A stretch of DNA of 57,351 bases, taken from an uncultured bacterium (GTDB lineage: Bacteria > UBA8481). Shown one piece after another: positions 23,206-56,815 of this stretch; the first letter of the stretch is position 1, and each line of letters begins with the position of its first letter. The notes under the pieces were generated by a model. That model was not told where the DNA came from and did not search any database. It saw only the letters and a list, made by a program, of their open reading frames with translations. The stretch is taken from assembly GCA_964637705.1 (NCBI GenBank), contig CAZWVM010000003.1:1-57351 (forward strand). The letters run 5' to 3'. Position numbers and translations under genes: made by a program.

Positions 23206-23207
23206 GA

Positions 23208-26768: not shown

Positions 26769-26770
26769 GG

Positions 26771-32364: not shown

Positions 32365-32481
32365 GCTCTCGAAATGATACGCCCGTCCGGTATCCGCGAC
32401 AACATCGAGCGCAATTGAAAACACGTGGATCGGATCGTGATGGATTCAACTTCGGGGCTTCCGGGTGTAACATGGGCGCGC

Positions 32482-37484: not shown

Positions 37485-38152
37485 GACCGCCTTCGACCCA
37501 GGAGGATCCTCCAGCGGTGCTCGATGCCGCAGATCGTCTCGATCGCGCCCCCGCTGCGGCGGTCCGGGATCTCCTCGACCGCGAAACCATGGCCCTCCAT
37601 GAACGCGATGACCTCGGCGGCCGGGTACGTGTTGTGGTAGACGCGGATGTGGCGGCTCCCCTCGTCGAGGTTCGAATCCGGGGTGTAGTTCACGACGAGA
37701 TCGTCGCCCAGGCTCTCGCGCAGGAGTATCGTGCGGCGCGCGGCAATGAGCAGACGCTCCAGCGGGCGCGCGTAGTGGGGGGCGTTCGTCAGGGTATTGA
37801 AACAGAGAACGTGGTCGAAAGGCCGGTCGAGATCCTCGATGTCGCCCTCGATGAAACGCTCCGGGCCCGTCCCCGCGGCGGCCATCTCTGCGCGGGCCAG
37901 CTCGATCATCTCCGGGGTGTGATCGAGCCCGTGATACTCGACCGGGATGCCGCGCGCCGCGAAGGACCAGAGGTAGTACCCCCCGCCGCAACCGGCGTCG
38001 AGAAGGGTTTCGCCGGGAGAGACGAGCGGCGCGAGGATCTCCGCGGCCTGGGCCGCGCATGTCATCTCCTCGGCCTCGCGGCGACAACGGCGCCGGTAGA
38101 GGTCGAGAAGCCTCCGGTCGTTGGCCCAGGGATTCCAGAGGGGATGGGCCAT
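37481..38152 (-). CDS. Class I SAM methyltransferase
   Basis: LLDAGCGGGYY and GLDHTPEM motifs; GGAG before the ATG at 38152 (GTG 38167 is an alternative). Confidence 0.85.
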   Translation of the reverse strand: MAHPLWNPWANDRRLLDLYRRRCRREAEEMTCAAQAAEILAPLVSPGETLLDAGCGGGYYLWSFAARGIPVEYHGLDHTPEMIELARAEMAAAGTGPERFIEGDIEDLDRPFDHVLCFNTLTNAPHYARPLERLLIAARRTILLRESLGDDLVVNYTPDSNLDEGSRHIRVYHNTYPAAEVIAFMEGHGFAVEEIPDRRSGGAIETICGIEHRWRILLGRRRS

Positions 38153-40120: not shown

Positions 40121-41235
40121 GACCAGGTCCAGTCCGGAACGAGGAACCCGGGCATGACCCACCGGCCGTCGACCTTCTTCCAGATCGTGAGGTTGCGGAA
40201 TCTCTCGCAGACCGCGAAGAAGCGCTCGCGCGTCAGGCCGACGAAATCGCAGAACAGGTCGATCTCCGGGAGCGGCGTTTCGTCCCCGCGTCTCTTGAGA
40301 ATCCCGATCGCCTCGTCCCGCGTCATCCGACCGTTGCGGATCTCCAGCGACAGGTTGTCGAAGGTGCGCGTCATGCCGAACTTGTGCCACTTGAGGAAAT
40401 GGTGGATCGCGATGAAGTCGTCGTCGATGTCGGCGTAATCGTAATACCCCGTGAGCGGTCCCTCGGCGCGGGGCCTGAAGCCATGACTTACGGCGGACGC
40501 CAGCGTCGTCTCCGGATCCCAGGGGAAGTAGTAGCCGAGGAAGATCGCGAGCACCTTCTTCGCCTCCAGTTCCTCGTCCGAGGGGCCGAAATACGGCGTC
40601 AGTTCCGATGAGGTCAGTTCCTTTCCAACCCAGTCCCGGGCCGTCGTGCCGTGCGTCACGCCGAACTTCTCGCGCCACGCCCGGTCCATCCGGAAACCCA
40701 GCCGCTCCTCGCCCGTCCCGCCATACTCGAAGGCCGAGTTCTCTCCCCAGACGACCAGGGGAATGTCGAACCGGGCCGCGATCGCGGTTGGAATGTTGAA
40801 GAGGGCCATGTGCATCGGGATCCCGGTTGCGCCGTAACGCTCGAAGGCGAGCCGGAGGAACTTCCTCTCGACCTTCGGGCTGACCTGGTAGTCGATGTGA
40901 TCGACGCCGAGGGAGACGAGGTTTTCGAGGTTCGCGGCGCCGATCGCCGTGCGCGACGGCGCCTTCCAGGTCACGCAGAGGGGGTTGAGGCCGTGCTCGA
41001 GGCAGGTGACGACCTGCCACGTGCTGTCCTTGCCGCCCGAAACCGGGATCACGCAGTCGTAGCCCGTCGAACGTGACTTCGCGTTCCGCACGACATCGCG
41101 GAAGGCCTCGGCGCGGCTCGCCCAGTCGATGCCCGGCCGGGTCTCGTGGTTGCGGCACGCGCTGCAGACCCCCGACTCGTCGATGACGACCTGGGGCCGC
41201 GTGTCCGGCGTGATGCATCGCGTGCAGTATCTCAT
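40117..41235 (-). CDS. N-acetyl sugar amidotransferase (WbpG/WbuX-like)
   Basis: MRYCTRCI, CSAC, VSGGKDS (PP-loop), VWGEN, KFGMTR and IRNGRMTRDEA motifs. Confidence 0.92.
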   Translation of the reverse strand: MRYCTRCITPDTRPQVVIDESGVCSACRNHETRPGIDWASRAEAFRDVVRNAKSRSTGYDCVIPVSGGKDSTWQVVTCLEHGLNPLCVTWKAPSRTAIGAANLENLVSLGVDHIDYQVSPKVERKFLRLAFERYGATGIPMHMALFNIPTAIAARFDIPLVVWGENSAFEYGGTGEERLGFRMDRAWREKFGVTHGTTARDWVGKELTSSELTPYFGPSDEELEAKKVLAIFLGYYFPWDPETTLASAVSHGFRPRAEGPLTGYYDYADIDDDFIAIHHFLKWHKFGMTRTFDNLSLEIRNGRMTRDEAIGILKRRGDETPLPEIDLFCDFVGLTRERFFAVCERFRNLTIWKKVDGRWVMPGFLVPDWTWS

Positions 41236-41236
41236 C

Positions 41237-43066
41237 TCAGGCGGATTCCTCGAGAAAGAGCTTAGCGCAGAGGAAATAGAAGAGGAACTTGCTTTCGCTG
41301 TTGGGGAGATGGTCGCGGGAAAGGAGGACTTCCACGGCCGGCCTCTTCACAAGATCGTAGATCGGGCTCTCGTCCAGGACCGCCGCACGGACAGAGGGAT
41401 CCTTCACGTCGAGCAGGTCATGGATCGAGGCGTTGAACCCGACCTTCCGGGGATTGTCCAAGACCACGTCGGGCACCGTCCCGCGCACGGCATCACGCAG
41501 GAGCGCCTTGGCGAGGCCGTCCTTCACGAGGTGACGCGTGGGCACGCGGCCGCAGAAGTCGAAGAGGGCGCGATCGAGGTAGGGCGAGCGGTTTTCGACG
41601 GACCAGTACATCGCGTTCAGGTCGTCCTCGTGCAGGATGACGGGCACGTTCTCGTGGAAAAGCTCGTTGAGCATCCGGTTCCTCAGGAGTTCCGCGCCGT
41701 AATCCTGTTCGGAGTAGTCCTCGTTCCACCCGGCGTGCAGCGCGGCGGAGAACTCCTCCGCCCCCAGGAGGATGTGCCCGCGGAAGGCCGGGTCCCGGTC
41801 GAAGAGTTCCGGGTCCGAGAGGAACGGATTGCGGACGTGCGGCTTTACCTTTTCTTCCCAGTTCCGACGCGACCGGGCGTACAGCTCCGCGTCGCCCCGC
41901 ACCGCGTGCAGGTAGGCGAGGTGATGGTCGTAGTAGCCGCTCAGCAACTCGTCCGCCGCCGTTCCGCTCACCGAGATGCGGTAACCGCTCTCGGCGATAT
42001 TTCTCAGCAGCTGCCAGTGGGCGTAGTACGTGATCGTGTACACGGGCGCATCGTGGTAGCGAACGAGGGTGCGCAGGTTCTCGAGGAAGCCCGAGGTCTC
42101 GAGCGGCACGTAGGTGTGGCGGATGCCGAGTTCCCGCACGGCGGGATCGACCACCGGCCGCTCGTCGTAACGAGGATCCTCGGAGTAGATCGTGAACCCG
42201 TGGACGTCGTAGCCGAGGCGGCGGGCGGCCAGGCTGATGAGCGCATTCGAGTCGATGCCGCCGCTCATGCAGAAGGCCAGGGGCACGTCCGCGCGCAGTC
42301 TCAGCCTCATCGCGGACGTCAACCGCTCGCGGACGCCCTCGACCGCGGCGTCGTAGGACATCGATGAGTCGGGCACGAAGGCCGGAGTCCAGTACCGCAT
42401 CCTCGTCTCGCGCCCTTCGCCGTCCACGGAGAGGATCGTGGCCGGCGGCAGATCCTCGATCCCCCGGAAAAACCGCTCTTGTCCCTTGTACAGGGCCTTG
42501 TAACCGTGGACGAGGTAGCGGCAGAGGTGGTTCTCGTTGACCTCGAACGGGCGGCCCCGGAGCGCCGCGAGATCCTTCACCTCCGAGGCGAAATAGAGCC
42601 CGTCACCATCGCGCGCCAGGACGAGGGGCTTCTCCCCGAAGCGGTCACGACCGAGGAGAAGCGACCCGTCCGTCTCGTCGAAGACGGCGAAGGCCCACAT
42701 GCCCTCGCAGAAGTCGAGCGCCCCGACACCCGCGTGCTCGAGCGCGGCCAGGAGCACCTCGGTGTCCGACGAGGTCGCGAATCCCTGTCCCTCATCCTCG
42801 AGCCGCTTTCGCACCTCGAGGTAGTTGTACAGCTCGCCGTTGTACACCATCCACTTCGATCCGCGGCGGTAGGGCTGGTTCGCACGCGGGTCGAGGTCGA
42901 TGATGGAGAGACGGCTGTGAAGGAGATGGACGTGCGTGCCGCGCGCGGTCCGGAAGGACTTGTGGTCCGCGTGGTCCGGTCCGCGACGCCTCATGAGCGA
43001 GAGGCACGACTCGATCCGGTCCCGTGCGAGAGGCGACGGCCCGATGTAGCCCGCGATCCCGCACAT
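41237..43066 (-). CDS. asnB: Glutamine-hydrolysing asparagine synthase-family amidotransferase
   Basis: MCGIAG (catalytic Cys2), RRGPD, RLSIID, YNGELYN, RDRFGEKPL, SGGIDS and ENRSPYLD motifs. Confidence 0.93.
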   Translation of the reverse strand: MCGIAGYIGPSPLARDRIESCLSLMRRRGPDHADHKSFRTARGTHVHLLHSRLSIIDLDPRANQPYRRGSKWMVYNGELYNYLEVRKRLEDEGQGFATSSDTEVLLAALEHAGVGALDFCEGMWAFAVFDETDGSLLLGRDRFGEKPLVLARDGDGLYFASEVKDLAALRGRPFEVNENHLCRYLVHGYKALYKGQERFFRGIEDLPPATILSVDGEGRETRMRYWTPAFVPDSSMSYDAAVEGVRERLTSAMRLRLRADVPLAFCMSGGIDSNALISLAARRLGYDVHGFTIYSEDPRYDERPVVDPAVRELGIRHTYVPLETSGFLENLRTLVRYHDAPVYTITYYAHWQLLRNIAESGYRISVSGTAADELLSGYYDHHLAYLHAVRGDAELYARSRRNWEEKVKPHVRNPFLSDPELFDRDPAFRGHILLGAEEFSAALHAGWNEDYSEQDYGAELLRNRMLNELFHENVPVILHEDDLNAMYWSVENRSPYLDRALFDFCGRVPTRHLVKDGLAKALLRDAVRGTVPDVVLDNPRKVGFNASIHDLLDVKDPSVRAAVLDESPIYDLVKRPAVEVLLSRDHLPNSESKFLFYFLCAKLFLEESA

Positions 43067-43067
43067 C

Positions 43068-43973
43068 TCAGGTCACCATGACCCGGCGCAGGCGGAAGAG
43101 GTCGTCGCCGACGCGGTTCGCGCCGGGTTGTGCCGTGGGACAGCAGGCGATGCCCTTCGCCTTCAGCCGCGCGACCACGGGTTCCGCGTCGCAACCCGGG
43201 AGTCCCTCCGGGTAGGAGTAATGCTCGATCGGCCGGCCGAGGAGGGACGAGAGGATCCCGAAACTCGTGGCAATCTCCTCGTCAAGGTCCCGATCGTCGA
43301 GATGCTCGAGCATCCGGTGCGTGTGGCCGTGGCCGCCCACGGTCATCCCGGGCAGGGACGCGAGCGTACGAATCTCGGGACAGGTGAGCTTCCGATCGAG
43401 GTAGGGATCCTCGTCGCACGGGCCGCATCCCAGCTGTTTCCGAACCTCTTCGGCGAACCGGTAGGGATCACGCGCGCGGTCCCCCTTCACGACACGCCGG
43501 ATCTCCTCGAGAAGCGCGATCTTCTCCAGGCGCGTGACGGCCCGACGCGGTGCGCCGGGCAGGAGGTCGCGCAGTTCCACGACCGGGCGAACTTCGAAAG
43601 CTTCCTCTATCGCGTCGATCCAGGACCGGGACTTCCCGTCAAGGAAACCGGTCGTGACGTAGAAGGTCGCCGGAAGACCGCGAGCGGCGAGGAGCGGGGC
43701 GGCCACCGTGAGGTTGTTCGCGAAGCCGTCGTCGAAGGTGATCGCGAAGGCATGCGGCGGCAATGTCCCGCCTCCGCGCGACGCCTCCACGACCTCCTGC
43801 ATCCCGACGCACGTCCCGGCCGCCTTCAGGTCGTCGATCACCTCGATGAACCGGGCCGCCTCGAGATGCTTCGCCGTGTAGTTCCTCACCGTGTGCCGCT
43901 GCTCCGGGATGACCCCGTGGAAAAGGAAGACGACGTAGCCGTCGTCGCGGAGGAGGGAGGAATAATCCGTCAC
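43068..43973 (-). CDS. Polysaccharide deacetylase (NodB-like)
   Basis: FLFHG, ITFDDG, ATFYV, GGHGHTH and YSYPEG motifs; GTGA overlap. Confidence 0.88.
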   Translation of the reverse strand: MTDYSSLLRDDGYVVFLFHGVIPEQRHTVRNYTAKHLEAARFIEVIDDLKAAGTCVGMQEVVEASRGGGTLPPHAFAITFDDGFANNLTVAAPLLAARGLPATFYVTTGFLDGKSRSWIDAIEEAFEVRPVVELRDLLPGAPRRAVTRLEKIALLEEIRRVVKGDRARDPYRFAEEVRKQLGCGPCDEDPYLDRKLTCPEIRTLASLPGMTVGGHGHTHRMLEHLDDRDLDEEIATSFGILSSLLGRPIEHYSYPEGLPGCDAEPVVARLKAKGIACCPTAQPGANRVGDDLFRLRRVMVT

Positions 43974-44680
43974 AACGCGGTCACGTGCCTTCGGAAGATC
44001 GCGACGCACTCCTCCTTTCGCTCGGCCGGCATCGCCGAGAAGTACCGTCCACGGCGGGTCTGCGGCCGCGCCGGCAGGGTTCTTCCCCCGCGCAGGAGAT
44101 CGAGGGCCGAGACCGTCAGGGAGAGACAGGCGCTCGTGTTCATCGCGCGCAAATGTTCGATCCGGGTTTGCTGGGTCAACGGAAGAGTCTCCTGGGCCAC
44201 GATGGCGCCGGTGTCGAGGTCGCGGTCAACGTGATGAAGCGTCGTCACGAGCGCGTCGAACGTGCCGTCGAGAATGGCCCAGAGATGGGAATCGAGACCC
44301 CGGTAGCGCTCCGGGTCGCCGCCGTGCAGGTTGAGGCAGGCCCGGCTCGGGATCGCGATGAGCTCGGCGCCGAGCTTGCCCGTGCCGAAGACGAGGATGA
44401 CGTCGGGCTTCAATGCTCCCAGGACCGCGCGCGTTTCCGCATCGTTGACGGACACGGCCCGGCGCACGGGCGCAATCTCCTCGAAGACCGGCAAGCGCCC
44501 CCCGAAGAGTAACTCCTTCTCGTAATCGTCGCGCAACGTCTCGAAGGGATGCGCCGTGGGAAACGGGTGAACCGGTTTCGCCGTTTCCAGGAGAACCAGG
44601 GCCAGGGGATGGCGGGCATGGAGCTCGCGCGCGTAATAGACATGGTGCACGGTCTCCGTGGTGAGGAGCGCTACCTTCAC
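43970..44680 (-). CDS. Formyltransferase-family protein
   Basis: LNLHGG...YRGLDS, TLHHVDRDLDTGAI (N/H/D catalytic set); GTGA overlap. Confidence 0.87.
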   Translation of the reverse strand: MKVALLTTETVHHVYYARELHARHPLALVLLETAKPVHPFPTAHPFETLRDDYEKELLFGGRLPVFEEIAPVRRAVSVNDAETRAVLGALKPDVILVFGTGKLGAELIAIPSRACLNLHGGDPERYRGLDSHLWAILDGTFDALVTTLHHVDRDLDTGAIVAQETLPLTQQTRIEHLRAMNTSACLSLTVSALDLLRGGRTLPARPQTRRGRYFSAMPAERKEECVAIFRRHVTAL

Positions 44681-45696
44681 CCGTTTTCCTCGACGTCCCC
44701 GGCGCCGAGAATCTCTCCCGCGGCGACGTCCCTCGTCAATCGCCGGCCGACGAGACGATCCTCTTCGCCGGGAAGAAGCCCCGCCCGGGGGCGTATCCAC
44801 GTCAGGTCCGCGAGCCCGATCACGTCGCCGCGCCTGAGCGGCCGGGCGGTCGCGATGGAGCGGCGCAGGGCCGCGCGGTTTCCCTCCTCGCAGGGCTGGA
44901 TCCCCTTCTCGCCGCTTCCCAGGAGCCTCTCGGTCTCCCGCACGCGTTCCACCAGGCGGCGGAATTCCGCGGGATCGGCCGAGAGCTTGTGATCGCGGAA
45001 GGAGGAATAATCGTGATCCAGCGTGAAGTGCTTCTCCACGATGCGGGCGCCCGCGGCCACGGCCGCGACGGCCGCCTCGATCCCGAGGGTGTGATCCGAG
45101 TAGCCGATCGTCGCGCCGGGAAAACGCGCGCCGAGCGCGGCGATGTTCCCGAGGTGGACCTCCCCGATCGGGACCGGGTAGGCGGCGACACAGTGCAGGA
45201 GCGCCAGTCCCGCGGAGACGCCCGGCGGGCGAGACGAGCGAATGCACGCCACGGCACGATCGACTCCGGCCATGTCGGTGAGCCCCGTCGAAAGGATCAC
45301 GGGGCGGAAACCCGAAGCGATGCGCCGGATGAGCGGGTAGAAGTCGTTGTCACCCGAGGCGATCTTCACCGCGTCCGCGATCTCCTCCACGAGGGCCGCG
45401 CTCTCGAGGTCGAACGGCGTCGAGATGAAGAGAAGTCCCCGGGCGCGGGCCTGGTCCGACAGCCTTCGGAACTCGTCGGGGGAGAGCTGGAACGATTGCA
45501 GGCGGTGGAACCTCTCGGCGTCGGACGCGCTGACGTAGTGCTCAGCGCGGAACGTCTGGAACTTGACGGCGTCCGCCCCGGTCGTCGCGGCCTCCTCCAC
45601 CAACCTTGCCGCCGTCTCGAAACTCCCCTCGTGGTTGTTGCCGATCTCCGCGACGATGAGAACCCGGTTGTCCGTCTCGAGGGCGCCGACTTTCAT
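44677..45696 (-). CDS. neuB: NeuB/SpsE-family nonulosonic acid synthase with SAF domain
   Basis: IVAEIGNNHEG, DAVKFQ, STPFD, KIASGD, LHCVAAYP, GYSDHT, EKHFTLD and RRSI motifs. Product specificity (Neu/Leg/Pse) is not resolvable from sequence by eye. Confidence 0.92.
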   Translation of the reverse strand: MKVGALETDNRVLIVAEIGNNHEGSFETAARLVEEAATTGADAVKFQTFRAEHYVSASDAERFHRLQSFQLSPDEFRRLSDQARARGLLFISTPFDLESAALVEEIADAVKIASGDNDFYPLIRRIASGFRPVILSTGLTDMAGVDRAVACIRSSRPPGVSAGLALLHCVAAYPVPIGEVHLGNIAALGARFPGATIGYSDHTLGIEAAVAAVAAGARIVEKHFTLDHDYSSFRDHKLSADPAEFRRLVERVRETERLLGSGEKGIQPCEEGNRAALRRSIATARPLRRGDVIGLADLTWIRPRAGLLPGEEDRLVGRRLTRDVAAGEILGAGDVEENG

Positions 45697-46622
45697 CGGC
45701 CGTAGATGAGGGCGGCCGCTCCGCGCACGGTCGCGAAGGTGTCGTAGCGGCGGATCTCCCCGGTTTCCCCCTCGAACCGCCACTTCCGGATCCAGAGACA
45801 CCGATCCTTTGCGCAGGTGAGAAGCCCGTTCGCGCTCACCTCGTAGACCCGGCCCGGTTCTCCGAAGACGTTGCGCTTGGCCCGCCGCGACGCGAGCAGC
45901 CTGACGCGGCGGCCGTTGACGAAGCTGTGTGCGCCGGGATAGGGATCCGTCAATGCACGGATCCGGTTGTGGATCTCCTCGGCCGTCAGCTGGTCGAAGA
46001 GAACGAACCCGTCCTCGGGGAATCGCAGGGGATAGTAGCCGGCCCGGGCTTCGTCCTGGACGCGTTTCTCCAGGCGCCCATCCTTCATCCTCGCCAGCGT
46101 CTCGACGAGCATCGCCGGAAACTCACGGTTCGCGATCGCCTGCAGGTCCGCGATGGAATCATCCGGTCCGATCGGGAAGGTTCGATCGAGAAGGACGGGA
46201 CCGGAATCCACGCCCGCATCGACCTCGATGACCGAAAGCGTGAAGGAACTCCAACCGTGGATCAGGGCCCAGTTCATCGGGGAGGAGCCGCGGCACTCGG
46301 GAAGCTTCCCCGCGTGGGTGTTGATGCATCCCCGGGGGAAAAGCGCGATCGTTGAGGGCTCGAGGATCGGGCCGTACCCGGAGAGCACCATGAGATCGGC
46401 ACCTTGTCCCGCCAGGGCCCGGCACGATTCCTCCGCGTTGATGTCTGCGGGGGAAAGGACCGGGATCCCCTTAGCGAGCGCCGCGGCGGCAAAGGATCGA
46501 ACCGGGGGCGTCGCACCCGGGAAAGGGTGTGCCACGGCGGCGGCGACGTCGAAACCCGCATCGATCAGGGCCTCGAGACAGGCCGTTCCCCGTTCCTTGT
46601 TTCCCGCGACCAGGATCTTCAT
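45693..46622 (-). CDS. Formyltransferase (Fmt/ArnA-N-like)
   Basis: INTHAGKLPECRGSSP, VDSGP and IRALTDPYPGA motifs, with a C-terminal Fmt domain. Confidence 0.88.
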   Translation of the reverse strand: MKILVAGNKERGTACLEALIDAGFDVAAAVAHPFPGATPPVRSFAAAALAKGIPVLSPADINAEESCRALAGQGADLMVLSGYGPILEPSTIALFPRGCINTHAGKLPECRGSSPMNWALIHGWSSFTLSVIEVDAGVDSGPVLLDRTFPIGPDDSIADLQAIANREFPAMLVETLARMKDGRLEKRVQDEARAGYYPLRFPEDGFVLFDQLTAEEIHNRIRALTDPYPGAHSFVNGRRVRLLASRRAKRNVFGEPGRVYEVSANGLLTCAKDRCLWIRKWRFEGETGEIRRYDTFATVRGAAALIYGR

Positions 46623-46881: not shown

Positions 46882-48708
46882 ATGGCGCGCATCGCGGGCA
46901 TTCTCTCCGAAGAACCTCCCCTGACCGACGAACTCCGGTCCATGCTCGCCGCTGCCGCGCCCGGCGTCGAGGTGAAGTCGACCGACGGCCCGGGTCTTCT
47001 CATGGGATCCGCTGCAGGCAGCGTGACCCGCACCGCCGCCGGCATTTCGGTCGCTCTCGACGGAACCGTCTACAACCGGGCGGATTTCCCGCGCGCGGCC
47101 TCGGACGCTGAGCTCGTGGCGTTTCTCTACGAGAAGCACGGTCTCCTCGAAACCCTGCGCCGTCTCAACGGCGACTTCGCCCTTGCGCTCTTCGACGAGT
47201 CGTCCCGGACGCTCTGGATCGCCCGGGATCGCTTCGGCATCAAGCCGCTCTACTACCGCGACCGTCCCGGCCGTTTCCTCTTCGCCTCCCGCTGCGCCTC
47301 GCTCCTCGCTCTCCCCGAGGTACCTTCCGACGTCGACCGGGCGTTTGTTGCGCGATTCGCGGGTCTCCATTACCGCTGCATCGACAACGAGCCCGGTGCG
47401 TCTCCCTACGCCGCCATCGCTCAACTTCCCGCCGCGACCGCCCTCGAGGTCGTCCCGGGGAAGGAACCTCGGCTTCACGACTGGTGGACGCTCCGGGACG
47501 AGGGCGACTTCGTGAAGCCGGAGGAGGATCTCGCGGCTGAATACCGCGCGCTCCTCCTCGACGCCGTCCGGATCCGCCTGGAATCCGCGCCGCGCCGCGC
47601 CTTCACGCTCTCGGGCGGGATGGATTCCTCCTCCGTCCTCTCCTGCGCCGTCCATCTCTCCGGCCGGAAGGAACAGGCCTTCTCGACCGTTTACGAGGAC
47701 GCGACCTACGACGAATCCACGGACATCCGGAGCATCCTCGAGGCGGTGGTGGAGGAGTGGCGCCGCGTCCGGGTCGGAACGCCCGACGTCTTCTCCCTCG
47801 TCGACGAGATGGTGGCCGTTCATGACGAACCCGTCGCCACCGCCACCTGGCTCTCCCATTTCCTGCTCTGCCGCGCCGTCCGCGAGGCCGGCTTCACGGC
47901 CCTCTTCGGCGGCCTGGGCGGGGACGAGATCAACGCGGGCGAATACGAGCATTTCCTCTTCCACTTCGCCGACCTTCGCGCGAGCGGCCGCGGGGCGGAA
48001 CTGGAGCGAGAGACCGCGGGCTGGATCCGCCACCACGACCACCCGGTCTTCAGGAAAAGCGCCGCTGTCCGCGACGAGGCCCTCGCCCGCCTCGTCGATC
48101 TCACCCGCCCCGGAATCTGCCGACCCGACGACGCGCGCCTCGCGCGATACCGCGACGCCGTCGCCCGCGACTACTTCGACCTCGCATCCTTCGTGCCCCG
48201 CATGGATCACCCCTTCGCCAGCTACCTCAAGAACCGCACCTGGCAGGATTTGAGCCGCGAGACGATTCCATGCTGTCTCAGGGGCGAGGACCGGCAGGCG
48301 GAAGCTGCGGGAATCGAGAACCGCCTTCCCTTCTTCGACCATCGGCTGGCCGAGTTCATGTTCCGGGTTCCGGGAACCATGAAATTCCGTGACGGCGTCA
48401 GCAAGATCCTCCTGAGAAGGGCGATGAGGGAGATCGTGCCCGAGGAAACGCGGACACGTGTGAAGAAGACGGGATGGAACGCCCCCGCTCACGTCTGGTT
48501 CTCGGGTAACAGGCTCGCGCGGCTCCGTGACATCGTCGCCTCACCCGTTCTGGACGGCCTCTACGACAGGAAACGTGTCACGGCTCTCCTCGCGGATCAC
48601 GAGGCGATCGTCACCTCGGGGAGGCCCGCGGAAAATCACATGATGTTTTTCTGGCAACTGGTGAATCTCGAAGCGTGGCTGAGGCATCACGGTCTTCGCG
48701 GCCGCTGA
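46882..48708 (+). CDS. AsnB-like ATP-dependent amide synthetase lacking the N-terminal Cys
   Basis: Starts MARIAG instead of MCGIAG; keeps RDRFGIKPL, SGGMDSS, GLGGDE, ENRLPFFD and KKTGW. Confidence 0.88.
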   Translation: MARIAGILSEEPPLTDELRSMLAAAAPGVEVKSTDGPGLLMGSAAGSVTRTAAGISVALDGTVYNRADFPRAASDAELVAFLYEKHGLLETLRRLNGDFALALFDESSRTLWIARDRFGIKPLYYRDRPGRFLFASRCASLLALPEVPSDVDRAFVARFAGLHYRCIDNEPGASPYAAIAQLPAATALEVVPGKEPRLHDWWTLRDEGDFVKPEEDLAAEYRALLLDAVRIRLESAPRRAFTLSGGMDSSSVLSCAVHLSGRKEQAFSTVYEDATYDESTDIRSILEAVVEEWRRVRVGTPDVFSLVDEMVAVHDEPVATATWLSHFLLCRAVREAGFTALFGGLGGDEINAGEYEHFLFHFADLRASGRGAELERETAGWIRHHDHPVFRKSAAVRDEALARLVDLTRPGICRPDDARLARYRDAVARDYFDLASFVPRMDHPFASYLKNRTWQDLSRETIPCCLRGEDRQAEAAGIENRLPFFDHRLAEFMFRVPGTMKFRDGVSKILLRRAMREIVPEETRTRVKKTGWNAPAHVWFSGNRLARLRDIVASPVLDGLYDRKRVTALLADHEAIVTSGRPAENHMMFFWQLVNLEAWLRHHGLRGR

Positions 48709-48733: not shown

Positions 48734-50776
48734 TCACGGGCCAGTTCGCGGTTCCGTCCTCGTCTTTCGCCAGAAGGTCTCGGCGCGATGCTCGAGCAGG
48801 GTTCTTGCCAGGCCAAACTCGCGGTCGGATCCGTAAAGAGTTCGAGCCTGTTCAACGAGGGTTCTCAACTTCGGCCCGTCTCGGCTCAGTCGGCACCGAA
48901 TCGGCCTCATGAATTCGGCCAGTTTCCGACCGTCTTCCGACTCGTACCAGCCGGCAACATCGTGCGACAGGTCGAGAACGATCTCGTCTTCCGTCCCCTC
49001 TCCCATGAACAACGGCGCGAAATCGCGGGCCGCCGTCATCCAGCGGAAACTGTCGCGGAGCGCGGCGCGGTCCGAAGCGGAAAGAGCCGGCTCGGCGCAC
49101 TCCTCCAGCGCGACGAAGCAAGTCTCCACGAACGGACCGAAGGAACGGCAGAGAATCTGCGTCCGGTATTTTCTCACAAGATTGTCCCCGATCTTCCCCT
49201 CGAGAAGATCCCGGTAGGTATCGGGCTCGGAGAACCGTCGCCGCAAGGGATCACGCGACTCCGCCAATTCGGCTTCGGTCTCACCGAGGAAGTCATGGTA
49301 GAGGGCGTGGCAGGGATGGTCCGTGTTCAGCAGGCGCCGCCGCAGGTTCTCGAGGAAGGCGGACCTGTCGATCCCGAGTTCCGTCATGTGCCGCCCCAAC
49401 AGGTCGTATTGCCGATCGGCGAGAACGACGCATAGGAAGGCGAAGCCCCGCGACTCCAGGTAATCCGCGAAGGGCATCGTCGTCGTCTCGACGCAAACCT
49501 CCTCGATCTCGAAGCATTTCTCTCCGCGATACTCGCCGAACTGGCGGGGAATGAGCCGGAACCGGGTTTTCATGCCGCGACGTGCCCGCCAATCCGGATC
49601 GGCAAAACAGGTGCCGGGCAGGACCATGAGAGTGAACGGCGTGATGCTGTCCGCTCCGGCCGCAAAGAACTCGCCGACGCCCTTCCGGAACGTTTCCAGG
49701 GTCTCCTCCGGCAGGGGCACGATCAGTTCCACGTCGGATTTCATGCGGTGCCTGCGGATCTCCCCCTGCACGCGGCGGTATTCATCGAGGCTCATGTTCC
49801 GCCGGTTGATGTCCTGGAGCGTTCGCGGGTTGAGCGATTGAAAGGAGCACGAGATGTTCATCCTCTTCTTCATGACTTCGGACATCCTCAACACGCGATC
49901 GTATTGGCGGCTGGTGTCAGCGATGATGGAGAGCGGCCAGCCGTGTTCGTCCTGGAGCCGCCCGATGTGCTCCGCGATCTCCTCGTCGCGATCGAGGATG
50001 CCGAAGTTGCTGTCCAGGATGTAAAGCGGCAGGTGAGGATGGCCGGCCATGCGTCGGGCGATATAGGCCAGTTCCTCTTTGACCCGTTCCAGGGGAAAGG
50101 GGACAACCCTGCTGTAAAGGGAATGGCTCGCGCGACAATAAGCGCAGTCATGGGGACATCCCCGGGCCGTCTGGATGGCGGGGGCGTAAGAGCCGTCGAA
50201 CCATCCGTCCATCAGCCCGGTCAGGTAGGGCGACGGGACTTCCCCCAGGTCCGGTATGCGGGGTGACGGCCCTTCGAAGAGCAGGTTTCCCTCCCGCGGA
50301 TCCAGAGTCATGATGCCGCTTCGCGCCGCGCTCCTGAGGCGCGCGCGATCCTCGTCGAGAATCCGGTCGCGAATAAGATCGGTGAAGACGACCTCTCCTT
50401 CGAGATAGGCGTAGAAGTCGATTTCGGGCCGCGCCCGCAGGAAATCCCGACAGGCCGCCGGTTCGACCGGAATGTCCGGGCCGCCCGCCACGCAGATCGT
50501 TCCGGGTTTTCTCTCCCGGCAGTAGGCAAAGGCGCGGCGGTTGAGATCGGCGTTCCACATGAAATTCGTCAACCCGACGACATCCGGTTTCCAGTCGTCC
50601 GCGTCGTCGAAGAACCGCGCTGGATCCTCGTAGAATCGAAGCTCCACCTGTTCACCGAGATGCTCGACGAGGTAGGCCCCGACGAAACCGATGCCCAAGG
50701 GCATGAGCGAGGAGTGGCGGCCGATCGTCCGATGGCGCAGTTCTCCCAGGGCGATCTTCAAGGGTCCTCCGGCCAT
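48734..50776 (-). CDS. B12-binding radical SAM enzyme
   Basis: PLGIGFVGAYL, VAGGP, EGE, SPYL, QTARGCPHDCAYC and DSNFG motifs. Confidence 0.9.
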   Translation of the reverse strand: MAGGPLKIALGELRHRTIGRHSSLMPLGIGFVGAYLVEHLGEQVELRFYEDPARFFDDADDWKPDVVGLTNFMWNADLNRRAFAYCRERKPGTICVAGGPDIPVEPAACRDFLRARPEIDFYAYLEGEVVFTDLIRDRILDEDRARLRSAARSGIMTLDPREGNLLFEGPSPRIPDLGEVPSPYLTGLMDGWFDGSYAPAIQTARGCPHDCAYCRASHSLYSRVVPFPLERVKEELAYIARRMAGHPHLPLYILDSNFGILDRDEEIAEHIGRLQDEHGWPLSIIADTSRQYDRVLRMSEVMKKRMNISCSFQSLNPRTLQDINRRNMSLDEYRRVQGEIRRHRMKSDVELIVPLPEETLETFRKGVGEFFAAGADSITPFTLMVLPGTCFADPDWRARRGMKTRFRLIPRQFGEYRGEKCFEIEEVCVETTTMPFADYLESRGFAFLCVVLADRQYDLLGRHMTELGIDRSAFLENLRRRLLNTDHPCHALYHDFLGETEAELAESRDPLRRRFSEPDTYRDLLEGKIGDNLVRKYRTQILCRSFGPFVETCFVALEECAEPALSASDRAALRDSFRWMTAARDFAPLFMGEGTEDEIVLDLSHDVAGWYESEDGRKLAEFMRPIRCRLSRDGPKLRTLVEQARTLYGSDREFGLARTLLEHRAETFWRKTRTEPRTGP

Positions 50777-50854
50777 CGCGTGACATCATAGTCGCGAACG
50801 ACCGTTTCTTGAATCCTGTTGTCAGGCCCGGGGGCCGGGGGTACTCTTCGCGCC
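50777..50854. promoter_or_regulatory. Back-to-back putative leaderless promoters
   Basis: Minus-strand TATGAT (50785-50790) 8 nt before ATG 50776; plus-strand TACTCT (50842-50847) 7 nt before ATG 50855; no SD in either case. Confidence 0.5.
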
Positions 50855-52492
50855 ATGAAGCCGCGCGTGCTCTTTCACCTCCATCCCCTCGTAGTTTTCG
50901 CCGGGCGCAGCCTTCACCTGCGAAGCATGGACCTGGCCGGGTCGACGCCGGCCGCCACGCATTTCGTGAGCCGATTGCGCTCCTTCGGTTATGACTCCAT
51001 CACCGTCTGCATCGAGAATTTCCGCCCGGCCTGGGCTTCCGAAAAGGATGTAGCCGAGGCACGGTCGAAGGCCGAGGCCTGGGCCCGCGGGGAGAACCTC
51101 TCCTTCTTCCACCATGACCTCCGGGAGGATGACCCGCGGGAGTACGGCGCCTCCATGCACGCGAATCTCTCGGGCGGGGAGGACGGCCTCTTCCTCGATC
51201 TGAGCCTCCGCTCGCTCTTCGTGCCGCGCGAGGAACTCGCGGCCCTCGAGGCTCCCCTCGCGGATGCCGCGGTCCTCGCGTGCTTCCGCATTCCCGCGTG
51301 GGAAGGCATGTGGCTCGCCCGGAAGAGCTATTACTCCGAGAGCGCGAAGCGCGAAGTCTACGGGACGAAATCCGCCTCGATCCTCCCCCCCGCCACCGAG
51401 TGCCCCCTCAAGTTCCCCGAGTGGGATCTCCGTCTCGCCTTCCTTCCCGTCGTCGAAAGGCTGTCGAAGACGGCCCCTCCCGAGGAGTGGTCCTACGACC
51501 ACCTGGTGAAGCTCAGGCAGGCCGAGCCTTCCCTCTTCCGCCCGTATTGTTCACACGTCGGCGTCGAGCTCACGAACGAGGACAACCTGCCCCGTCTCCG
51601 GCATCCGTCGAAGATTTCGAAACGGCCGACCGGATTCCTTTCCGACGATTCCTGGCAGGCCCTGCTCGAGTCCCTGCCGGTCGACATGACCCCGTTCTCG
51701 CTCGATTTCTGGGATTTCGGCGAGCCGCTCCTGCATCCCCGCGCGATCGACTTCGTCGAGCAGGCCGCCCGCAAGGGCGCCCGGGTCGATCTCTACACCA
51801 ACGGGATCCTCCTCGACGCGGAGAAGGCGGCGCGGCTCGCCTCCTCCGGACTCGACGCCCTCTTCTTCCGCCTCGACGCCGCCACGCCGGAGACCCATGC
51901 GCGCGTCGGCGGAAAAGCCGGTGATTTCGAGCGGGCGACGAAGAACCTGGCCGCCTTTCTCGCGGCCAAGAAATCCCGCTGCGCAGGCCAGGCGCCCCCG
52001 TGGTCGCCCCAGGTCGCCGTCCAGATCACCGAGATGCCGGAGACGGCTGCGGACATCGACGCCTTCTTCGATCGCTACGACCTCAGGACCGCGGCCGAGA
52101 ATCGCCTGAGGGAAAAACACGGGAGGCTCCCGATGGAGCACGAGGTTCTCGCGGAGGTCCTCTCCGGTCCGGAGCCGATCGAGCACGCGATGCTGAGGCA
52201 CGACAACCTCTTCCGGGGCCGCGTCTCCCGCCCTGACTCCGAGATGTGCCCCCTCTTCCGCTTCCCCTGCCGCCAGCTCCTCGAGGGGCCCCATGTTCTC
52301 TGGAACGGCGACATCGTGCCGTGCCGGGAGGATGTCGATGGTGAACACGTCGTCGGGCACGTGAGGGACGGCCTCACCGCCGCCTGGCGCGGGGCCCGCA
52401 TGGCTTCCGTCCTCCAGGTCCACGACACGGGTTCCTGGGACGCGTCCGCCTTCTGCGGCCCCTGCAAGGAATGGTACTACCCCTTCTCTTGA
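50855..52492 (+). CDS. Degenerate radical SAM/SPASM protein (spiro-SPASM-like architecture)
   Basis: VELTNEDNLPRLRHP aligns to ELTNxCNxxCxxC with all three Cys replaced; GEPLLHP and TNGILL are kept; C-terminal PC...VPC...CGPC cluster motif. Confidence 0.8.
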   Translation: MKPRVLFHLHPLVVFAGRSLHLRSMDLAGSTPAATHFVSRLRSFGYDSITVCIENFRPAWASEKDVAEARSKAEAWARGENLSFFHHDLREDDPREYGASMHANLSGGEDGLFLDLSLRSLFVPREELAALEAPLADAAVLACFRIPAWEGMWLARKSYYSESAKREVYGTKSASILPPATECPLKFPEWDLRLAFLPVVERLSKTAPPEEWSYDHLVKLRQAEPSLFRPYCSHVGVELTNEDNLPRLRHPSKISKRPTGFLSDDSWQALLESLPVDMTPFSLDFWDFGEPLLHPRAIDFVEQAARKGARVDLYTNGILLDAEKAARLASSGLDALFFRLDAATPETHARVGGKAGDFERATKNLAAFLAAKKSRCAGQAPPWSPQVAVQITEMPETAADIDAFFDRYDLRTAAENRLREKHGRLPMEHEVLAEVLSGPEPIEHAMLRHDNLFRGRVSRPDSEMCPLFRFPCRQLLEGPHVLWNGDIVPCREDVDGEHVVGHVRDGLTAAWRGARMASVLQVHDTGSWDASAFCGPCKEWYYPFS

Positions 52493-52508
52493 TCCGATTC
52501 GCGCGGCC

Positions 52509-53186
52509 GTGATGAACTCCACCGTCATCCTCCAGGCCCGTGTCGGCTCCTCGCGCCGCCCCGGCAAGGTGCTTGCGGAGATCGCGGGCCGGACACTCCT
52601 GGACCGCGTCATGGCCCGCCTGGAGGGCGCCTGCGGCGCGCCCCAGGTCCTCGCCATTCCCGACACGGCCGACAACGATCCCCTGGCGTCGATCGGCCGT
52701 CGGCGCGAGTGGCGCGTCTTCCGCGGCAGCGAGCGGGACGTGCTCGGTCGTTACGCGGCCGCCGCCCGTGCCTTCGGCCTGGAAAGGATCCTGCGCGCCA
52801 CCGGGGACAATCCCTTCGTGGATACCCGGCTCGTCGCGGACGTCGACTCGCTCCTTCCCGGCCATGACGTCGTGCGCGCGGTCGGCTACCCGAGGGGCAC
52901 CACCGTGGCCGGTGTCACGGCACGAGCCCTGCTCGAAGCCGAGAAGGAAGCGAGCGCCGAGGAGGATCGGGAACACGTCATGCCGTTCCTCTTCGCCCGC
53001 CCGGAGCGGTTTCGAATCCGCGTGATCGAGGCCCCGGTCGGAATCGCCGATCGCTACCGCCTCACCGTGGACACGGAAGAGGACCTGGAACGAGCGCGCA
53101 GAATCGTCGAGGCCCTGGGCGATGATCCGCCCGTGGAGAGGATCTACCGGTTTCTCGACGAAACACCCGGGGCTCGGCTCGGCTAG
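52509..53186 (+). CDS. SpsF-like cytidylyltransferase
   Basis: ILQARVGSSRRPGKVL, RGSERDVL, RATGDNP, REHVMP and RLTVDTEED motifs. Confidence 0.9.
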   Translation: MMNSTVILQARVGSSRRPGKVLAEIAGRTLLDRVMARLEGACGAPQVLAIPDTADNDPLASIGRRREWRVFRGSERDVLGRYAAAARAFGLERILRATGDNPFVDTRLVADVDSLLPGHDVVRAVGYPRGTTVAGVTARALLEAEKEASAEEDREHVMPFLFARPERFRIRVIEAPVGIADRYRLTVDTEEDLERARRIVEALGDDPPVERIYRFLDETPGARLG

Positions 53187-54325: not shown

Positions 54326-54810
54326 TTGGACGCGCGGAGCTTCACGATGAGGTCCTTGACGATGTTCCAGTAGTGGCGCTTCGCCCAGGCGCGGTCATCG
54401 ACCCGGTCCGCGTCCGGCCACCACGTGAACTCGGTCGAGATCTCCTCGAAGCGGTAATCGATGCCGTAATCCGAGCATCCCGGATCGTGGCAGAAATAGC
54501 GGAAGGTCCCCTCCGTGAAGGCCCGGACGTGGGTGGGATCCGTCCATGCGGCCGAGGAGGTGTAGTAGGGAACCTCGATCGTGATGATCCCGCCGGGCTT
54601 GAGGCACCGGTGAACCTCTCCCATGCACGCGAGCAGGTCCCGGACGTGTTCCATGACGGAATGGCAGAAGAACTCGTCCACCGAGGAGGTCCTGAGCGGC
54701 AAGCGCCCCTCGAGGTCGCCGACGATCGCCGGTCTCACGCGCGGCGTCTTGTCGAGACCCCGGAAACCCTCCCGAGGATTCCGGCCGCAGCCGAGATCGA
54801 TCCGGATCAT
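54322..54810 (-). CDS. Small class I SAM methyltransferase (type 11-like)
   Basis: IDLGCG, HSVMEH, LKPGG and WTDPTH motifs; ATGA overlap. Confidence 0.85.
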   Translation of the reverse strand: MIRIDLGCGRNPREGFRGLDKTPRVRPAIVGDLEGRLPLRTSSVDEFFCHSVMEHVRDLLACMGEVHRCLKPGGIITIEVPYYTSSAAWTDPTHVRAFTEGTFRYFCHDPGCSDYGIDYRFEEISTEFTWWPDADRVDDRAWAKRHYWNIVKDLIVKLRASK

Positions 54811-56168
54811 GACAAGGCACCTCGTTCCGCCGCTCGATTCATCTCGCGGCCCAGGATCATCGATTGCAGGATGACATACGCGCCGCGTGCCGTCACCAGC
54901 AGGGGAAAGAAGATCTCGGGCCGGCCGGAAAGAGACAGGAGCGTCAGCGCGAAGAGGGCCACGTCGCGCCCGACCCAGGGCGCCACGCGCGGCAGGATCG
55001 TGCGCCCCGGCCGCCAGCGGTCGCCCAGGATCAGCCCGAGGGCGGTCAGGGTGTCCCCCGAGGCCACGTAGAGCACGTTGACGAGGAACGCCGCCCCGGC
55101 CCAGTTCCATGAGCCCGTGCCCAGAGCGATCCCGAGGAAGACCGCGTACTCGCCGGCCATGTCCCCGAGCCGGTCGTACCATCCCCCGCGATAGGATCCC
55201 CGGTGCTTGAGCCGCGCGATCTCGCCGTCGATGCCGTCCACCACGGAGTGCAGGTGGACCAGGAGCCCGCCGGCCGCGAAGTGCCCCGCGGCGAGAAGCG
55301 CGGCGCCGGCGGCGCCGAAGAGGAACGCGATGAGCGTCGCCGCGTCGGGCGAGAGCCCGGTGCGCGCGAGTCGCCTCGTGAGGGCGAGCGAAACGGGGCG
55401 GTTGAAAATCCTGGAGACGGGACCGTCTCTCCCCTTCCCGAGCCGCGCCAGGAGGCGCGCCTCGGCGATGGGCAGCATCTCCGGCGTGTCCACGTCGATC
55501 CAGGAGGCTCCATCGACGGAGAGCGTCCGCATCCGGTCCGCTTCGCAGAGAACCTGGTTTCCGGCCGAGAGCGACGTGTTGCCCCTCTTCTCGGCTTCCC
55601 GGAGGGCCGCGAAGATCCCCGAGGTCATCCGGAAGCAACCGGTATCGATGGCGTTGTATCGCTCGAGCTGCTTGCCGATCCGCACGATCCTTCCCGTCTC
55701 GCCGTCCTGTATCACCTCGACCTTGGTCGCATCGTCCAGGTCCGGACAGTCGTCGATTCGTCCATCCACGGCCAGGATCGCCCCTTCGGGTGGAGGGTTC
55801 GCGGCCGCCAGCCTGCGAAGAATCGCCGGTTCGACGAGGTGATCGGCCATGAGGACGAGGAAGTCCTCGGATCCGATCTCGTCCTCGGCCGCCAGGATCG
55901 AGAGCCCGTTGGCCTCCTCGTAGCGCGGGTTCTCCACGTAACGGACCCGGTCGAGAACCGGCGGCGGAAGCGCCGCGGCGAGACCGTCGCGGATTTCCGC
56001 CGCGCGATAGCCCACCACCACCACGACCGTCTCGAGCCCGGCCTCGAGCGCCGTAAGGATGACGCGGGCCAGGAGCGGCACGCCCAGCAAGGGGATCAGG
56101 GGCTTGGGAAGCCGGTCGTCGCTCGTGATCCTCGTGCCCTTGCCCGCCGCGATGACGACCGCCTTCAT
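54807..56168 (-). CDS. Bifunctional NTP-transferase / CDP-alcohol phosphotransferase (IPCT/DIPPS-like)
   Basis: N-terminal IAAGKGTR, PKPL, MADH and WIDVDTPE; linker DGPVSRIFNRPVS; C-terminal DGIDGEIARLKHRGSYRGGWYDRLGD (CDP-alcohol signature). Confidence 0.92.
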   Translation of the reverse strand: MKAVVIAAGKGTRITSDDRLPKPLIPLLGVPLLARVILTALEAGLETVVVVVGYRAAEIRDGLAAALPPPVLDRVRYVENPRYEEANGLSILAAEDEIGSEDFLVLMADHLVEPAILRRLAAANPPPEGAILAVDGRIDDCPDLDDATKVEVIQDGETGRIVRIGKQLERYNAIDTGCFRMTSGIFAALREAEKRGNTSLSAGNQVLCEADRMRTLSVDGASWIDVDTPEMLPIAEARLLARLGKGRDGPVSRIFNRPVSLALTRRLARTGLSPDAATLIAFLFGAAGAALLAAGHFAAGGLLVHLHSVVDGIDGEIARLKHRGSYRGGWYDRLGDMAGEYAVFLGIALGTGSWNWAGAAFLVNVLYVASGDTLTALGLILGDRWRPGRTILPRVAPWVGRDVALFALTLLSLSGRPEIFFPLLVTARGAYVILQSMILGREMNRAAERGALS

Positions 56169-56815
56169 CGCGTGCTCCTCCAGAAGGCGATCCACTGGGG
56201 GACAAGAAGGAGTGGTGAGGCGATGACGATCCAGAGCGCGGCCGCCTCGTGGCCGCTCGACAGTCCGGCGGCGAGAGCAAGCCACGCGAACTCCTCGCCC
56301 ACGGGCCAGGGATAGGGCGTCGCGAAAAAGAGCCGGTTCATCGCCTTCACGGTTTCCGGCGAGCTCTCCCGCCGGCGGGAGGGGATCTCGACGACGAGCG
56401 AGATCGCGGAGTAGGGAAAGACGTTGCAGGATATCGCGGCGCAGAGGCCCAGCGGCAGGTTTCCAGCCGCGTGACCGGCGAGGATCATGACGAGGGATTC
56501 GAGAACGCGGCGCATCAGGTAGAATCGGCGTTGCGCCAGGATCGATCCCGCCTCGTCCAGCGCCGCCGGAACGAGGACGAGGTACGCGACGATCGCGCCG
56601 GCGGCCAGAACCGCCTGGTGACGCAGCAGGGCTGCGGCCATCGTCAAGGCCGCCGCCAGGAAGAGAACCGACACGAGAGGGCGGGGCAGGAATCGGAGGG
56701 AGCGGCCCAGCGGCGCGAGCGCGAATCGCGAGAGGATCGATCCCCTCTCGAACAGGCCCATCACGCTCGACTCGGGTGATACCGGCACGGCCGCTCTGGC
56801 TTCGTCGTGAAGCAT
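56165..56815 (-). CDS. Integral membrane protein, possibly a degenerate CDP-alcohol phosphotransferase homologue
   Basis: About 5-6 hydrophobic segments; AALDEAGSILAQRR is loosely similar to DxxDGxxAR; ATGA overlap with the downstream gene. Confidence 0.6.
   Translation of the reverse strand: MLHDEARAAVPVSPESSVMGLFERGSILSRFALAPLGRSLRFLPRPLVSVLFLAAALTMAAALLRHQAVLAAGAIVAYLVLVPAALDEAGSILAQRRFYLMRRVLESLVMILAGHAAGNLPLGLCAAISCNVFPYSAISLVVEIPSRRRESSPETVKAMNRLFFATPYPWPVGEEFAWLALAAGLSSGHEAAALWIVIASPLLLVPQWIAFWRSTR

Follow-up and report, generated by a model that had tools for sequence, protein, structure and literature searches.

At 50855–52492 on the forward strand of the 57,351-nt stretch analysed here (contig CAZWVM010000003.1; hereafter the window), a gene encodes a protein, called the target below, that combines a cytidylyltransferase (CT)-like N-terminal domain, a radical S-adenosylmethionine (SAM) barrel devoid of cluster cysteines and, at the C terminus, a Twitch domain. 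The target cannot hold the [4Fe-4S] cluster of radical SAM enzymes, and from its sequence we infer that it binds one [4Fe-4S] cluster and performs no radical chemistry; canonical catalytic signatures are gone from two domains while the Fe-S domain is apparently intact. The explanation that we prefer, and hold tentatively, is that the target is a non-radical Fe-S protein tethered to a CT, with a remodelled Arg/Asp-rich pocket and an N-terminal domain that would pair with the CT, the two proteins working on a CMP (cytidine monophosphate)-activated sugar. Residues are numbered either from the ATG at 50855 (545-aa numbering) or from the TTG at 50819 (557-aa numbering), and the target comprises the following features:

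50855–52492, forward strand: target gene, 545 aa, three domains (CT-like N-terminal, Cys-less radical-SAM barrel, Twitch)
50855–51538, forward strand: N-terminal domain, residues 1–228, degenerate cytidylyltransferase-like fold without the (Q)ARxxSxRxPGK signature
51539–52210, forward strand: radical-SAM-type partial barrel, residues 229–452, without the CxxxCxxC cluster site
51572–51607, forward strand: former cluster loop TNEDNLPRLRHP, with C1 changed to D, C2 to R, φ to R and C3 to H
51716–51733, forward strand: FGEPLL, the retained GGE motif for binding AdoMet (S-adenosylmethionine), with G301, E302, P303 and L304 (557-aa numbering), invariant in the clade
52211–52489, forward strand: Twitch-type auxiliary Fe-S domain with four invariant cysteines

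The open reading frame (ORF) extends over 50819–52492 on the forward strand and opens at the TTG; the alignment of homologues best supports the ATG at 50855 (M13, giving 545 aa) as the start, and a public gene call uses the ATG at 50927 (M37, 521 aa).

Where relatives read ELTNxCNLxCxxCP, the target reads ELTNEDNLPRLRHP. An alignment of 46 sequences sets the relatives' columns TN-D-C-NL-x-C-x-x-C-P against D, R and H at the three cysteine positions of the target, the same changes that a preliminary description of this DNA had read from the letters; the motif it had placed at about 51566–51607 is there, its exact span being 51572–51607. The φ residue before the third cysteine is Phe, Met or Tyr in Cys-containing relatives and an invariant Arg in the clade made up of the target and its 17 homologues. 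The cysteine triad is missing in all 18 members, nearly all of which keep the motif H-[VLI]-[GS]-[VI]-E-x-T-N-x-D-N-L-P-(x)-R-[LI]-R-x-P with a few conservative departures. Among the ligand positions Asp alone is conserved; Arg occupies C2 and φ, and C3 varies among S, A, H, R and K. Because the three cluster cysteines and φ are replaced by Asp/Arg/Arg, the target cannot hold a radical-SAM [4Fe-4S] cluster. In radical SAM enzymes the unique iron of this cluster anchors the amino and carboxylate groups of AdoMet, and φ packs on the adenine (PMC6231123); with the cluster site gone, AdoMet therefore cannot be anchored to a unique iron through these groups.

Other hallmarks of the radical SAM superfamily are present in the target, namely the domain score (PF04055, 43.7 bits for a gathering threshold of 29.5, the match being limited to profile positions 54–140), the partial TIM-barrel fold (Foldseek probability of 1.00 for the model against BtrN, BlsE, DesII and MoaA) and the GGE motif, FGEPLL aligning with YGEPLL of BtrN; CxxxCxxC is missing. 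Retention of the GGE motif and of the overall barrel could speak for an enzyme that is still of the radical SAM kind, its cluster sitting on non-cysteine ligands or supplied in trans, and Asp and His can indeed serve as Fe-S ligands in other proteins. Such a reading is highly improbable, given that Asp is the only conserved residue at a ligand position, with C2 and φ turned to Arg and C3 variable, and that the 16-sequence alignment (A1) holds no conserved cysteine outside the four of the Twitch domain.

The clade was assembled from a search of 5.8 billion proteins, which gave 15 full-length or near-full-length homologues with 32–53% identity, and from an exhaustive profile search, run on 1.84 billion representatives, which added two; a plasmid database search returned only remote radical SAM matches. 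In A1, mean pairwise identity is 25% for the N-terminal domain and 48% for both the barrel and the C-terminal domain, with 31 invariant columns in the barrel and 15 in the C-terminal domain (46 together). The GC content at third codon positions (GC3) of the target gene is 0.86, in line with neighbouring genes. Loss of the canonical catalytic residues from two of three domains is what a decaying relic might display, and decay towards a pseudogene was an outcome that the preliminary description had reckoned with. We consider it barely credible and ruled out by the evidence at hand: the ORF is intact, its GC3 is host-like, and the 17 homologues share both the replacement motif and the 46 invariant barrel and Twitch columns. 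The target is a full-length, selectively maintained gene.

Comparison with 61 Cys-containing relatives singled out 17 invariant residues that are specific to the clade (557-aa numbering: F240, H246, R261, D296, W298, D299, D324, F349, R351, T404, E405, R460, H461, D462, R471, R485 and G490), 12 of which are charged or polar. In the AlphaFold model, D296, W298, D299, D324, R351, T404, E405, R460, H461 and D462 are placed within predicted barrel strands β2 to β6 or directly behind them, positions that in a radical-SAM barrel make up the active-site face. The clade retains the GGE Glu and T327/N328, which other Cys-less lineages relax (E 52%, N 19%). NCBIfam and Pfam scans of the target recognised no catalytic motif belonging to a known enzyme class.

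The number and kind of these clade-specific polar residues at the barrel-strand ends, together with the selective retention of the GGE Glu and of T327/N328, raise the possibility of an autonomous neo-enzyme, independent of any CT, in which H461/D462 would act as acid/base and Asp residues would hold a metal in a new, non-radical site. Variants of it would have the target perform polar AdoMet chemistry, in which Asp and Arg would take over from the unique iron in anchoring the methionine amino and carboxylate groups, or act directly on a nonulosonic acid; the finding that most clade loci have no adjacent CT, their neighbours changing from one locus to the next, also fits. We nevertheless regard a neo-enzyme as rather unlikely, since no catalytic motif of a known class is recognised and, to our knowledge, polar AdoMet chemistry in a radical-SAM fold is without precedent. 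Moreover, the adenine-packing φ (for its role, see PMC6231123) is replaced by Arg.

The cysteines of the C-terminal domain are C472, C490, C534 and C537 (545-aa numbering; codons at 52268–70, 52322–24, 52454–56 and 52463–65), arranged as Cx12Gx4C...CxxC, and the chain ends 8 residues past the CxxC. All four are found in 16/16 sequences of A1 and, one partial sequence excepted, in the 107 superfamily sequences examined. When a profile of the domain was run against PDB sequences, BtrN was recovered with an E-value of 1.1e-15 and the four cysteines fell without gaps on those of its C-terminal (Twitch) region, the second-best match being SuiB (E 0.054); when the Twitch region was searched against the PDB as a single sequence, there was no match, so that the BtrN match needed a profile. 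In BtrN, four cysteines supply all ligands of the auxiliary cluster, the first preceding a β-hairpin, the second following it and the other two following helix α2′, and this cluster survives knock-out of the radical-SAM cluster (PMC6231123, PMC9012708). The AlphaFold model of the target likewise has a predicted hairpin and helices between the cysteines. PF13186 (SPASM) scores 25.9 bits on the target for a threshold of 21.5; a full SPASM domain, with seven cysteines in CX9-15GX4C...CX2CX5CX3C...C and two clusters, was ruled out, only four cysteines being available. Because the pattern is exactly the four-cysteine one of BtrN, with the chain ending 8 residues after the CxxC, we assign the domain on sequence grounds to the BtrN-type Twitch, with a one-cluster pattern, despite its Pfam SPASM score. 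Thus, the auxiliary cysteines that the preliminary description had seen retained are four Twitch ligands, not the seven of a complete SPASM domain.

The AlphaFold2 model, computed from the 46-sequence alignment, has a mean predicted local distance difference test score (pLDDT) of 93.4 and a predicted template-modelling (TM) score of 0.91. Foldseek against the PDB placed BtrN on top (E 3.4e-11, TM 0.70 on the length of BtrN), followed by BlsE, DesII, SkfB, SuiB and MoaA, and in a profile search of PDB sequences BtrN again ranked highest (E 4.8e-15), the GEPLL and YTNG motifs falling on each other, with BlsE and DesII once more among the best matches. BtrN (butirosin 2-deoxy-scyllo-inosamine dehydrogenase; PDB 4M7T/4M7S), the prototype Twitch enzyme, is therefore the best solved-structure match of the target by fold and by profile, and shares with it the GEPLL and YTNG motifs and the four gap-free Twitch cysteines. 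Unlike the target, it is an AdoMet-cleaving enzyme with a CxxxCxxC cluster (PMC9012708); it lacks the CT-like domain at the N terminus and reaches less than half the target's size.

The N-terminal domain, the long one of the preliminary description (about 230 aa), matched CMP-Kdo synthetases in Foldseek with E-values of 3e-5 to 1e-4. A Pfam scan of residues 1–230 found no match, and hhalign gave none for the clade domain directly against CTs (probability 0.5%); the clade domain does align with the N-terminal domains of the second tier of three-domain proteins described below (probability 85.6%, E 5.6e-6), and these in turn align with SpsF-type CTs (probability 98%, E 1.8e-13). Stand-alone CTs weakly match positions 17–226 of the spiro-SPASM profile TIGR04321. 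The (Q)ARxxSxRxPGK motif occurs in every genuine CT examined and is missing from the target and from nearly all three-domain proteins. The first domain is thus a CT-like fold without the CTP (cytidine triphosphate)-binding signature, and the three-domain layout given in the preliminary description holds by AlphaFold model, Foldseek and hhalign.

A genuine CT is encoded next to the target. Three genes occupy 48734–53186, a B12 radical SAM gene on the reverse strand and, on the forward strand, the target and the CT; these and the nearest nonulosonic acid synthase gene are as follows:

52509–53186, forward strand: SpsF/PseF-type CT, 225 aa, PF02348, QARxGSSRRPGK motif intact
50777–50854, no strand: divergent intergenic region, 78 bp
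48734–50776, reverse strand: B12-binding class-B radical SAM gene, 680 aa, with B12-binding and Radical_SAM domains and an intact CPHDCAYC
44677–45696, reverse strand: NeuB-family nonulosonic acid synthase

The CT gene starts 16 nt past the target stop codon, in agreement with the SpsF-like gene that had been noted there, and no terminator-like site was found on the forward strand between the two; they are probably co-transcribed. Its product matches PF02348 over the full length (60.1 bits, cut-off 22.6, profile positions 2–205 of 217) and carries QARVGSSRRPGK, the nucleotide-binding signature. An NCBIfam scan returned no equivalog at its cut-off. A promoter scan of the 78-bp divergent spacer gave no sigma-70-like match.

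The surroundings of the clade were compared over ten distinct loci (the window, L001, L003, L005–L010 and L015). A NeuB-family synthase lies within 10 kb in 7/10 and is the most constant neighbour; in all of them, amidotransferases (WbuX-, HisH/HisF- or AsnB-like) and methyl-, sulfo-, carbamoyl- and glycosyltransferases are found around the clade gene. Only in the window does an SpsF-type CT adjoin the clade gene; L003 and L010 have one at a distance of up to 10 kb, which makes three of the ten loci in total. Six loci contain an intact radical SAM gene within 10 kb, its class varying, and the other four contain none; in the window and in L007 it is divergently adjacent, as had been described for the intact B12 gene. 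This recurrence could make the target the dead-paralogue accessory subunit of nearby intact radical SAM enzymes (here the B12 enzyme), serving in substrate presentation or as a Twitch electron relay. A specific heteromer is unlikely because the candidate partners differ in class (B12 class B, short radical SAM-Twitch enzymes and others) and four loci have none; in addition, the B12 enzyme of the window is common to no other clade locus, and we judge the accessory role as distinctly unlikely. No second, Cys-containing radical SAM-Twitch paralogue was found in the window, the search turning up two B12-type enzymes only.

Both the GC content (0.626) and the GC3 (0.78) of the B12 gene itself lie below those of its neighbours (GC3 0.83–0.89), and no homologue of it occurs in the other clade loci; it may be a later acquisition. 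The best NCBIfam family of its product is that of the KedN5-type methylcobalamin C-methyltransferases, at 150 bits for a cut-off of 700.

Outside the clade, pairing with an SpsF-type CT is the standard arrangement in spirochaete loci. Two spirochaete loci, one encoding a Cys-less and the other an intact protein (L012 and L013), consist of LeuA-like, SurA-like, spiro-SPASM, CT and ~298-aa protein genes; L017, from a genome with a hydrazine-synthase-like gene, has the three-domain protein, a 309-aa protein, a CT and a SurA-like protein, and in L014 the CT lies three genes downstream of the three-domain protein. The window CT is 31–36% identical to the spirochaete partner CTs. Homologues of the ~298-aa spirochaete protein, which follows the CT, were sought in the window and none was found. 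The module shared by L012 (6226–11141), L013 (5341–11147) and L017 (496–12783) comprises a SurA-like peptidyl-prolyl isomerase, the three-domain radical SAM-like protein, an SpsF/PseF-type CT and a ~300-aa unannotated protein, in a housekeeping context. L017 probably belongs to an anammox planctomycete (HZS_alpha nearby). The spirochaete 298-aa protein starts WGDSFGMGHIQR and looks PseG/SpsG-like by eye only, with no NCBIfam match; it is not homologous to the 309-aa protein of L017.

The spiro-SPASM family TIGR04321, which the preliminary description had correctly named, is the best NCBIfam match of the target (74.1 bits, E 9e-21). Protein residues 212–553 (profile 200–506) align, and thus the last two domains only, the N-terminal domain being unmatched. 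The score remains well below the family cut-off of 250 bits; for comparison, clade member P0006 scores 92 bits and the true member P0149 scores 409. Of the two profile matches that had been looked to, then, PF04055 clears its threshold, while TIGR04321 is the top family and its cut-off is not reached. This score and a separate monophyletic clade rule out membership of the target in TIGR04321. A profile search showed the superfamily to be graded: clade members exceed 430 bits to their own profile, a second tier of 480–610 aa proteins, mostly three-domain, scores 100–209 bits to TIGR04321, and one representative, P0149, passes the cut-off. In a neighbour-joining tree of the barrel and Twitch region, built without support values, the clade forms a monophyletic group next to proteins whose triads are intact, and loss of the triad maps to at least seven distinct points of the superfamily.

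For the family proper, P0149 and 50 retrieved relatives were analysed (51 proteins). All organism-named members are from Spirochaetes/Spirochaetota, several being labelled 'spiro-SPASM protein', which bears out the spirochaete restriction that the preliminary description gave for the family. At least one triad cysteine is missing in 17 of the 51, in keeping with the frequent loss also given there, while the four Twitch cysteines are present in all complete sequences. The idea that the host of the window extends the range of the family did not hold up on this contig alone, the three-domain superfamily being already widespread in metagenomes, with one member genome also having a hydrazine-synthase-like gene. 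TIGR04321 resembles the target in the order of its CT-like N-terminal domain, radical SAM barrel and C-terminal four-cysteine domain, in an SpsF-type CT gene immediately downstream (L012 and L013) and, as regards the whole clade, in the frequent loss of the triad with the four Twitch cysteines kept. It differs in that the triad replacement is variable, whereas the clade has a fixed D/R/R; in the GGE Glu, which is Asp in many Cys-less spirochaete members and kept in the clade; in its neighbourhood, LeuA-like/SurA-like instead of nonulosonic-acid/glycan islands; and in its spirochaete hosts, the target host being very unlikely a spirochaete. Among P0285–P0334, the GGE Glu is often Asp (GSGDPLL and similar) in Cys-less spirochaete lineages, while Cys-containing spirochaete members keep the Glu, P0326 (LWGDPSR) excepted, and so does the window clade; the change from Glu to Asp together with triad loss looks like a correlated AdoMet-site change.

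A comparable concept exists in TIGR04347, the 'pseudo-SAM/SPASM protein' of Halobacteria, a radical SAM/SPASM homologue named for its missing canonical site. The target is no member, showing weak barrel homology over ~80 residues (E 3.5e-8, 33 bits, cut-off 525). The type of family is thus already catalogued (TIGR04321; pseudo-SAM TIGR04347) and not characterised, and the clade is distinct in being below the family cut-off, in its fixed D/R/R, in a clade-specific charged pocket and in its location in nonulosonic-acid islands of candidate phyla.

The same two modules also occur as neighbouring genes in nonulosonic-acid clusters, where short radical SAM-Twitch proteins (~300–350 aa) are paired with SpsF/PseF-type CTs. 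In L003/L004, short intact radical SAM-Twitch genes that flank the clade member stand directly upstream of CT genes. Their barrel and Twitch domains are homologous to those of the target (many matches with E-values of 1e-33 to 1e-39); unlike the target, they have an intact CxxxCxxC and no fused N-terminal domain, and no NCBIfam family was reached at its cut-off. Because separate radical SAM-Twitch genes directly precede CT genes in L003/L004, the three-domain proteins look like fusions of radical SAM-Twitch and CT pairs.

Across the superfamily the Twitch cluster, the CT-like N-terminal domain and the CT partner are the constants. Since the spirochaete neighbourhood is the same with or without the triad, the shared function seems to have no need for radical chemistry. 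In the explanation that we prefer, the former active site of the target would have been rebuilt, where the barrel strands end C-terminally, into a pocket that invariant Arg, Asp and His residues line and that is suited to an anionic nucleotide-sugar such as CMP-nonulosonic acid or a precursor. An anionic sugar ligand is suggested because the nearest structural relatives act on sugar-type substrates (BtrN, BlsE and DesII use a sugar, aminocyclitol or nucleoside-sugar) and because of the family's association with CTs and NeuB. Enzymes of the SpsF-type CT family are dimers; the degenerate N-terminal domain of the target would dock onto the genuine CT encoded at 52509–53186, and the pair would make a CMP-activated sugar and hand it on, or process it, for a surface glycan of the 57-kb island. 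The barrel could contribute either polar catalysis or ligand binding alone.

Several points weigh against this explanation. The CT homology of the clade N-terminal domain is transitive (85.6%, then 98%) with modest Foldseek scores, and heterodimerisation of the target with the CT is inferred throughout. Since a CT lies within 10 kb in only three of the ten clade loci, the CT partnership may be ancestral in the clade and not current. The invariant residues were placed in the pocket by their secondary-structure positions and not by three-dimensional distances, and, with the GGE and TNG residues retained, the target may still bind AdoMet, although the model needs none. Finally, the superfamily has no biochemically characterised member, and our literature searches found no paper on the spiro-SPASM/TIGR04321 family and nothing linking the family to nonulosonic acids.

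A more specific version, in which the core function of the superfamily would rest on the Twitch Fe-S domain and the CT partnership instead of radical chemistry and the clade barrel has become a non-radical active site (Asp/Arg in place of the cluster, an invariant RHD motif) working on CMP-nonulosonic acid, is in our estimation unlikely. If true, it would be the first documented radical-SAM fold converted to polar catalysis, as well as a natural radical-SAM-cluster knock-out for the study of auxiliary clusters. The role of SPASM/Twitch auxiliary clusters is still debated (PMC9012708), and a conserved natural protein with the Twitch cluster site alone would offer a clean system to address it. 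Pseudo-radical-SAM proteins are catalogued but unstudied, and the fixed charged pocket of the clade points to gain rather than loss of function. The link of TIGR04321 and its relatives to nonulosonic-acid/CMP-sugar metabolism would suggest a substrate class for the superfamily as a whole, its intact radical enzymes included, and sialic-acid-like sugar pathways of candidate phyla would gain an extra step or partner.

With regard to the host, named homologues of the target come from Candidatus Hydrogenedentota and Lindowbacteria, and only 4 of 185,579 species genomes encode a clade member, two of these being named Hydrogenedentes/Hydrogenedentota. At the other end of the contig, the nucleotide-sugar dehydrogenase encoded at 2060–3343 has its best named matches in the same two phyla (55–56% identity). 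No tRNA or rRNA gene was found on the contig, whose content is glycan genes only. As judged from these relatives, a Hydrogenedentota-like host is likely; a spirochaete host, the unusual one that the preliminary description had offered as an option, is very unlikely, genes from both contig ends having their named relatives in Hydrogenedentota and Lindowbacteria.

The glycan island contains further genes of possible relevance to sugar activation. At 20963–26828, a second CTP_transf_3 gene (24212–25069) is grouped with two DegT-type aminotransferases, an epimerase/dehydratase and a GNAT acetyltransferase, which together represent the canonical nonulosonic-acid pathway, ~20 kb from the NeuB gene at 44677–45696; the two SpsF/PseF-type cytidylyltransferases of the island are 36% identical to each other. 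A myo-inositol-1-phosphate synthase gene followed by the second B12-binding radical SAM gene (GCVYHCYYC) is found at 16879–20011, the two B12 radical SAM proteins of the window being only 23% identical, and the IPCT/DIPPS-like product of 54807–56285 (192 bits, cut-off 580), from the opposite end of the island, is a bifunctional NTP-transferase/CDP-alcohol phosphatidyltransferase. The inositol-related genes of these two regions suggest CDP-inositol chemistry feeding the surface glycan. A WbuX N-acetyl-sugar amidotransferase (328 bits, cut-off 203) is encoded next to an AsnB-like amidotransferase at 40117–43066, and a second AsnB-like gene lies beside the B12 enzyme at 46882–48708; WbuX homologues also occur in the clade loci L005, L007 and L008. 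The WbuX/AsnB-like genes hint that the sugar may carry acetamidino or amide groups.

At 34431–38087, only a C-terminal Glyco_trans_1_2 domain is recognised in a 1218-aa ORF, leaving ~1050 aa without an assigned domain, and 30967–32424 encodes, inside the glycan island, a DUF4910/DUF2172 aminopeptidase-like protein with a C-terminal helix-turn-helix. The high GC content gives long overlapping spurious ORFs at 43970–45801. The listed 425-aa ORF at 43970–45247 overlaps NeuB, and the real gene corresponds to its C-terminal ~236 aa (43970–44680), encoding a short formyltransferase-like protein. The NeuB start is most likely the ATG at 45696, directly next to where the formyltransferase gene at 45693–46622 stops.

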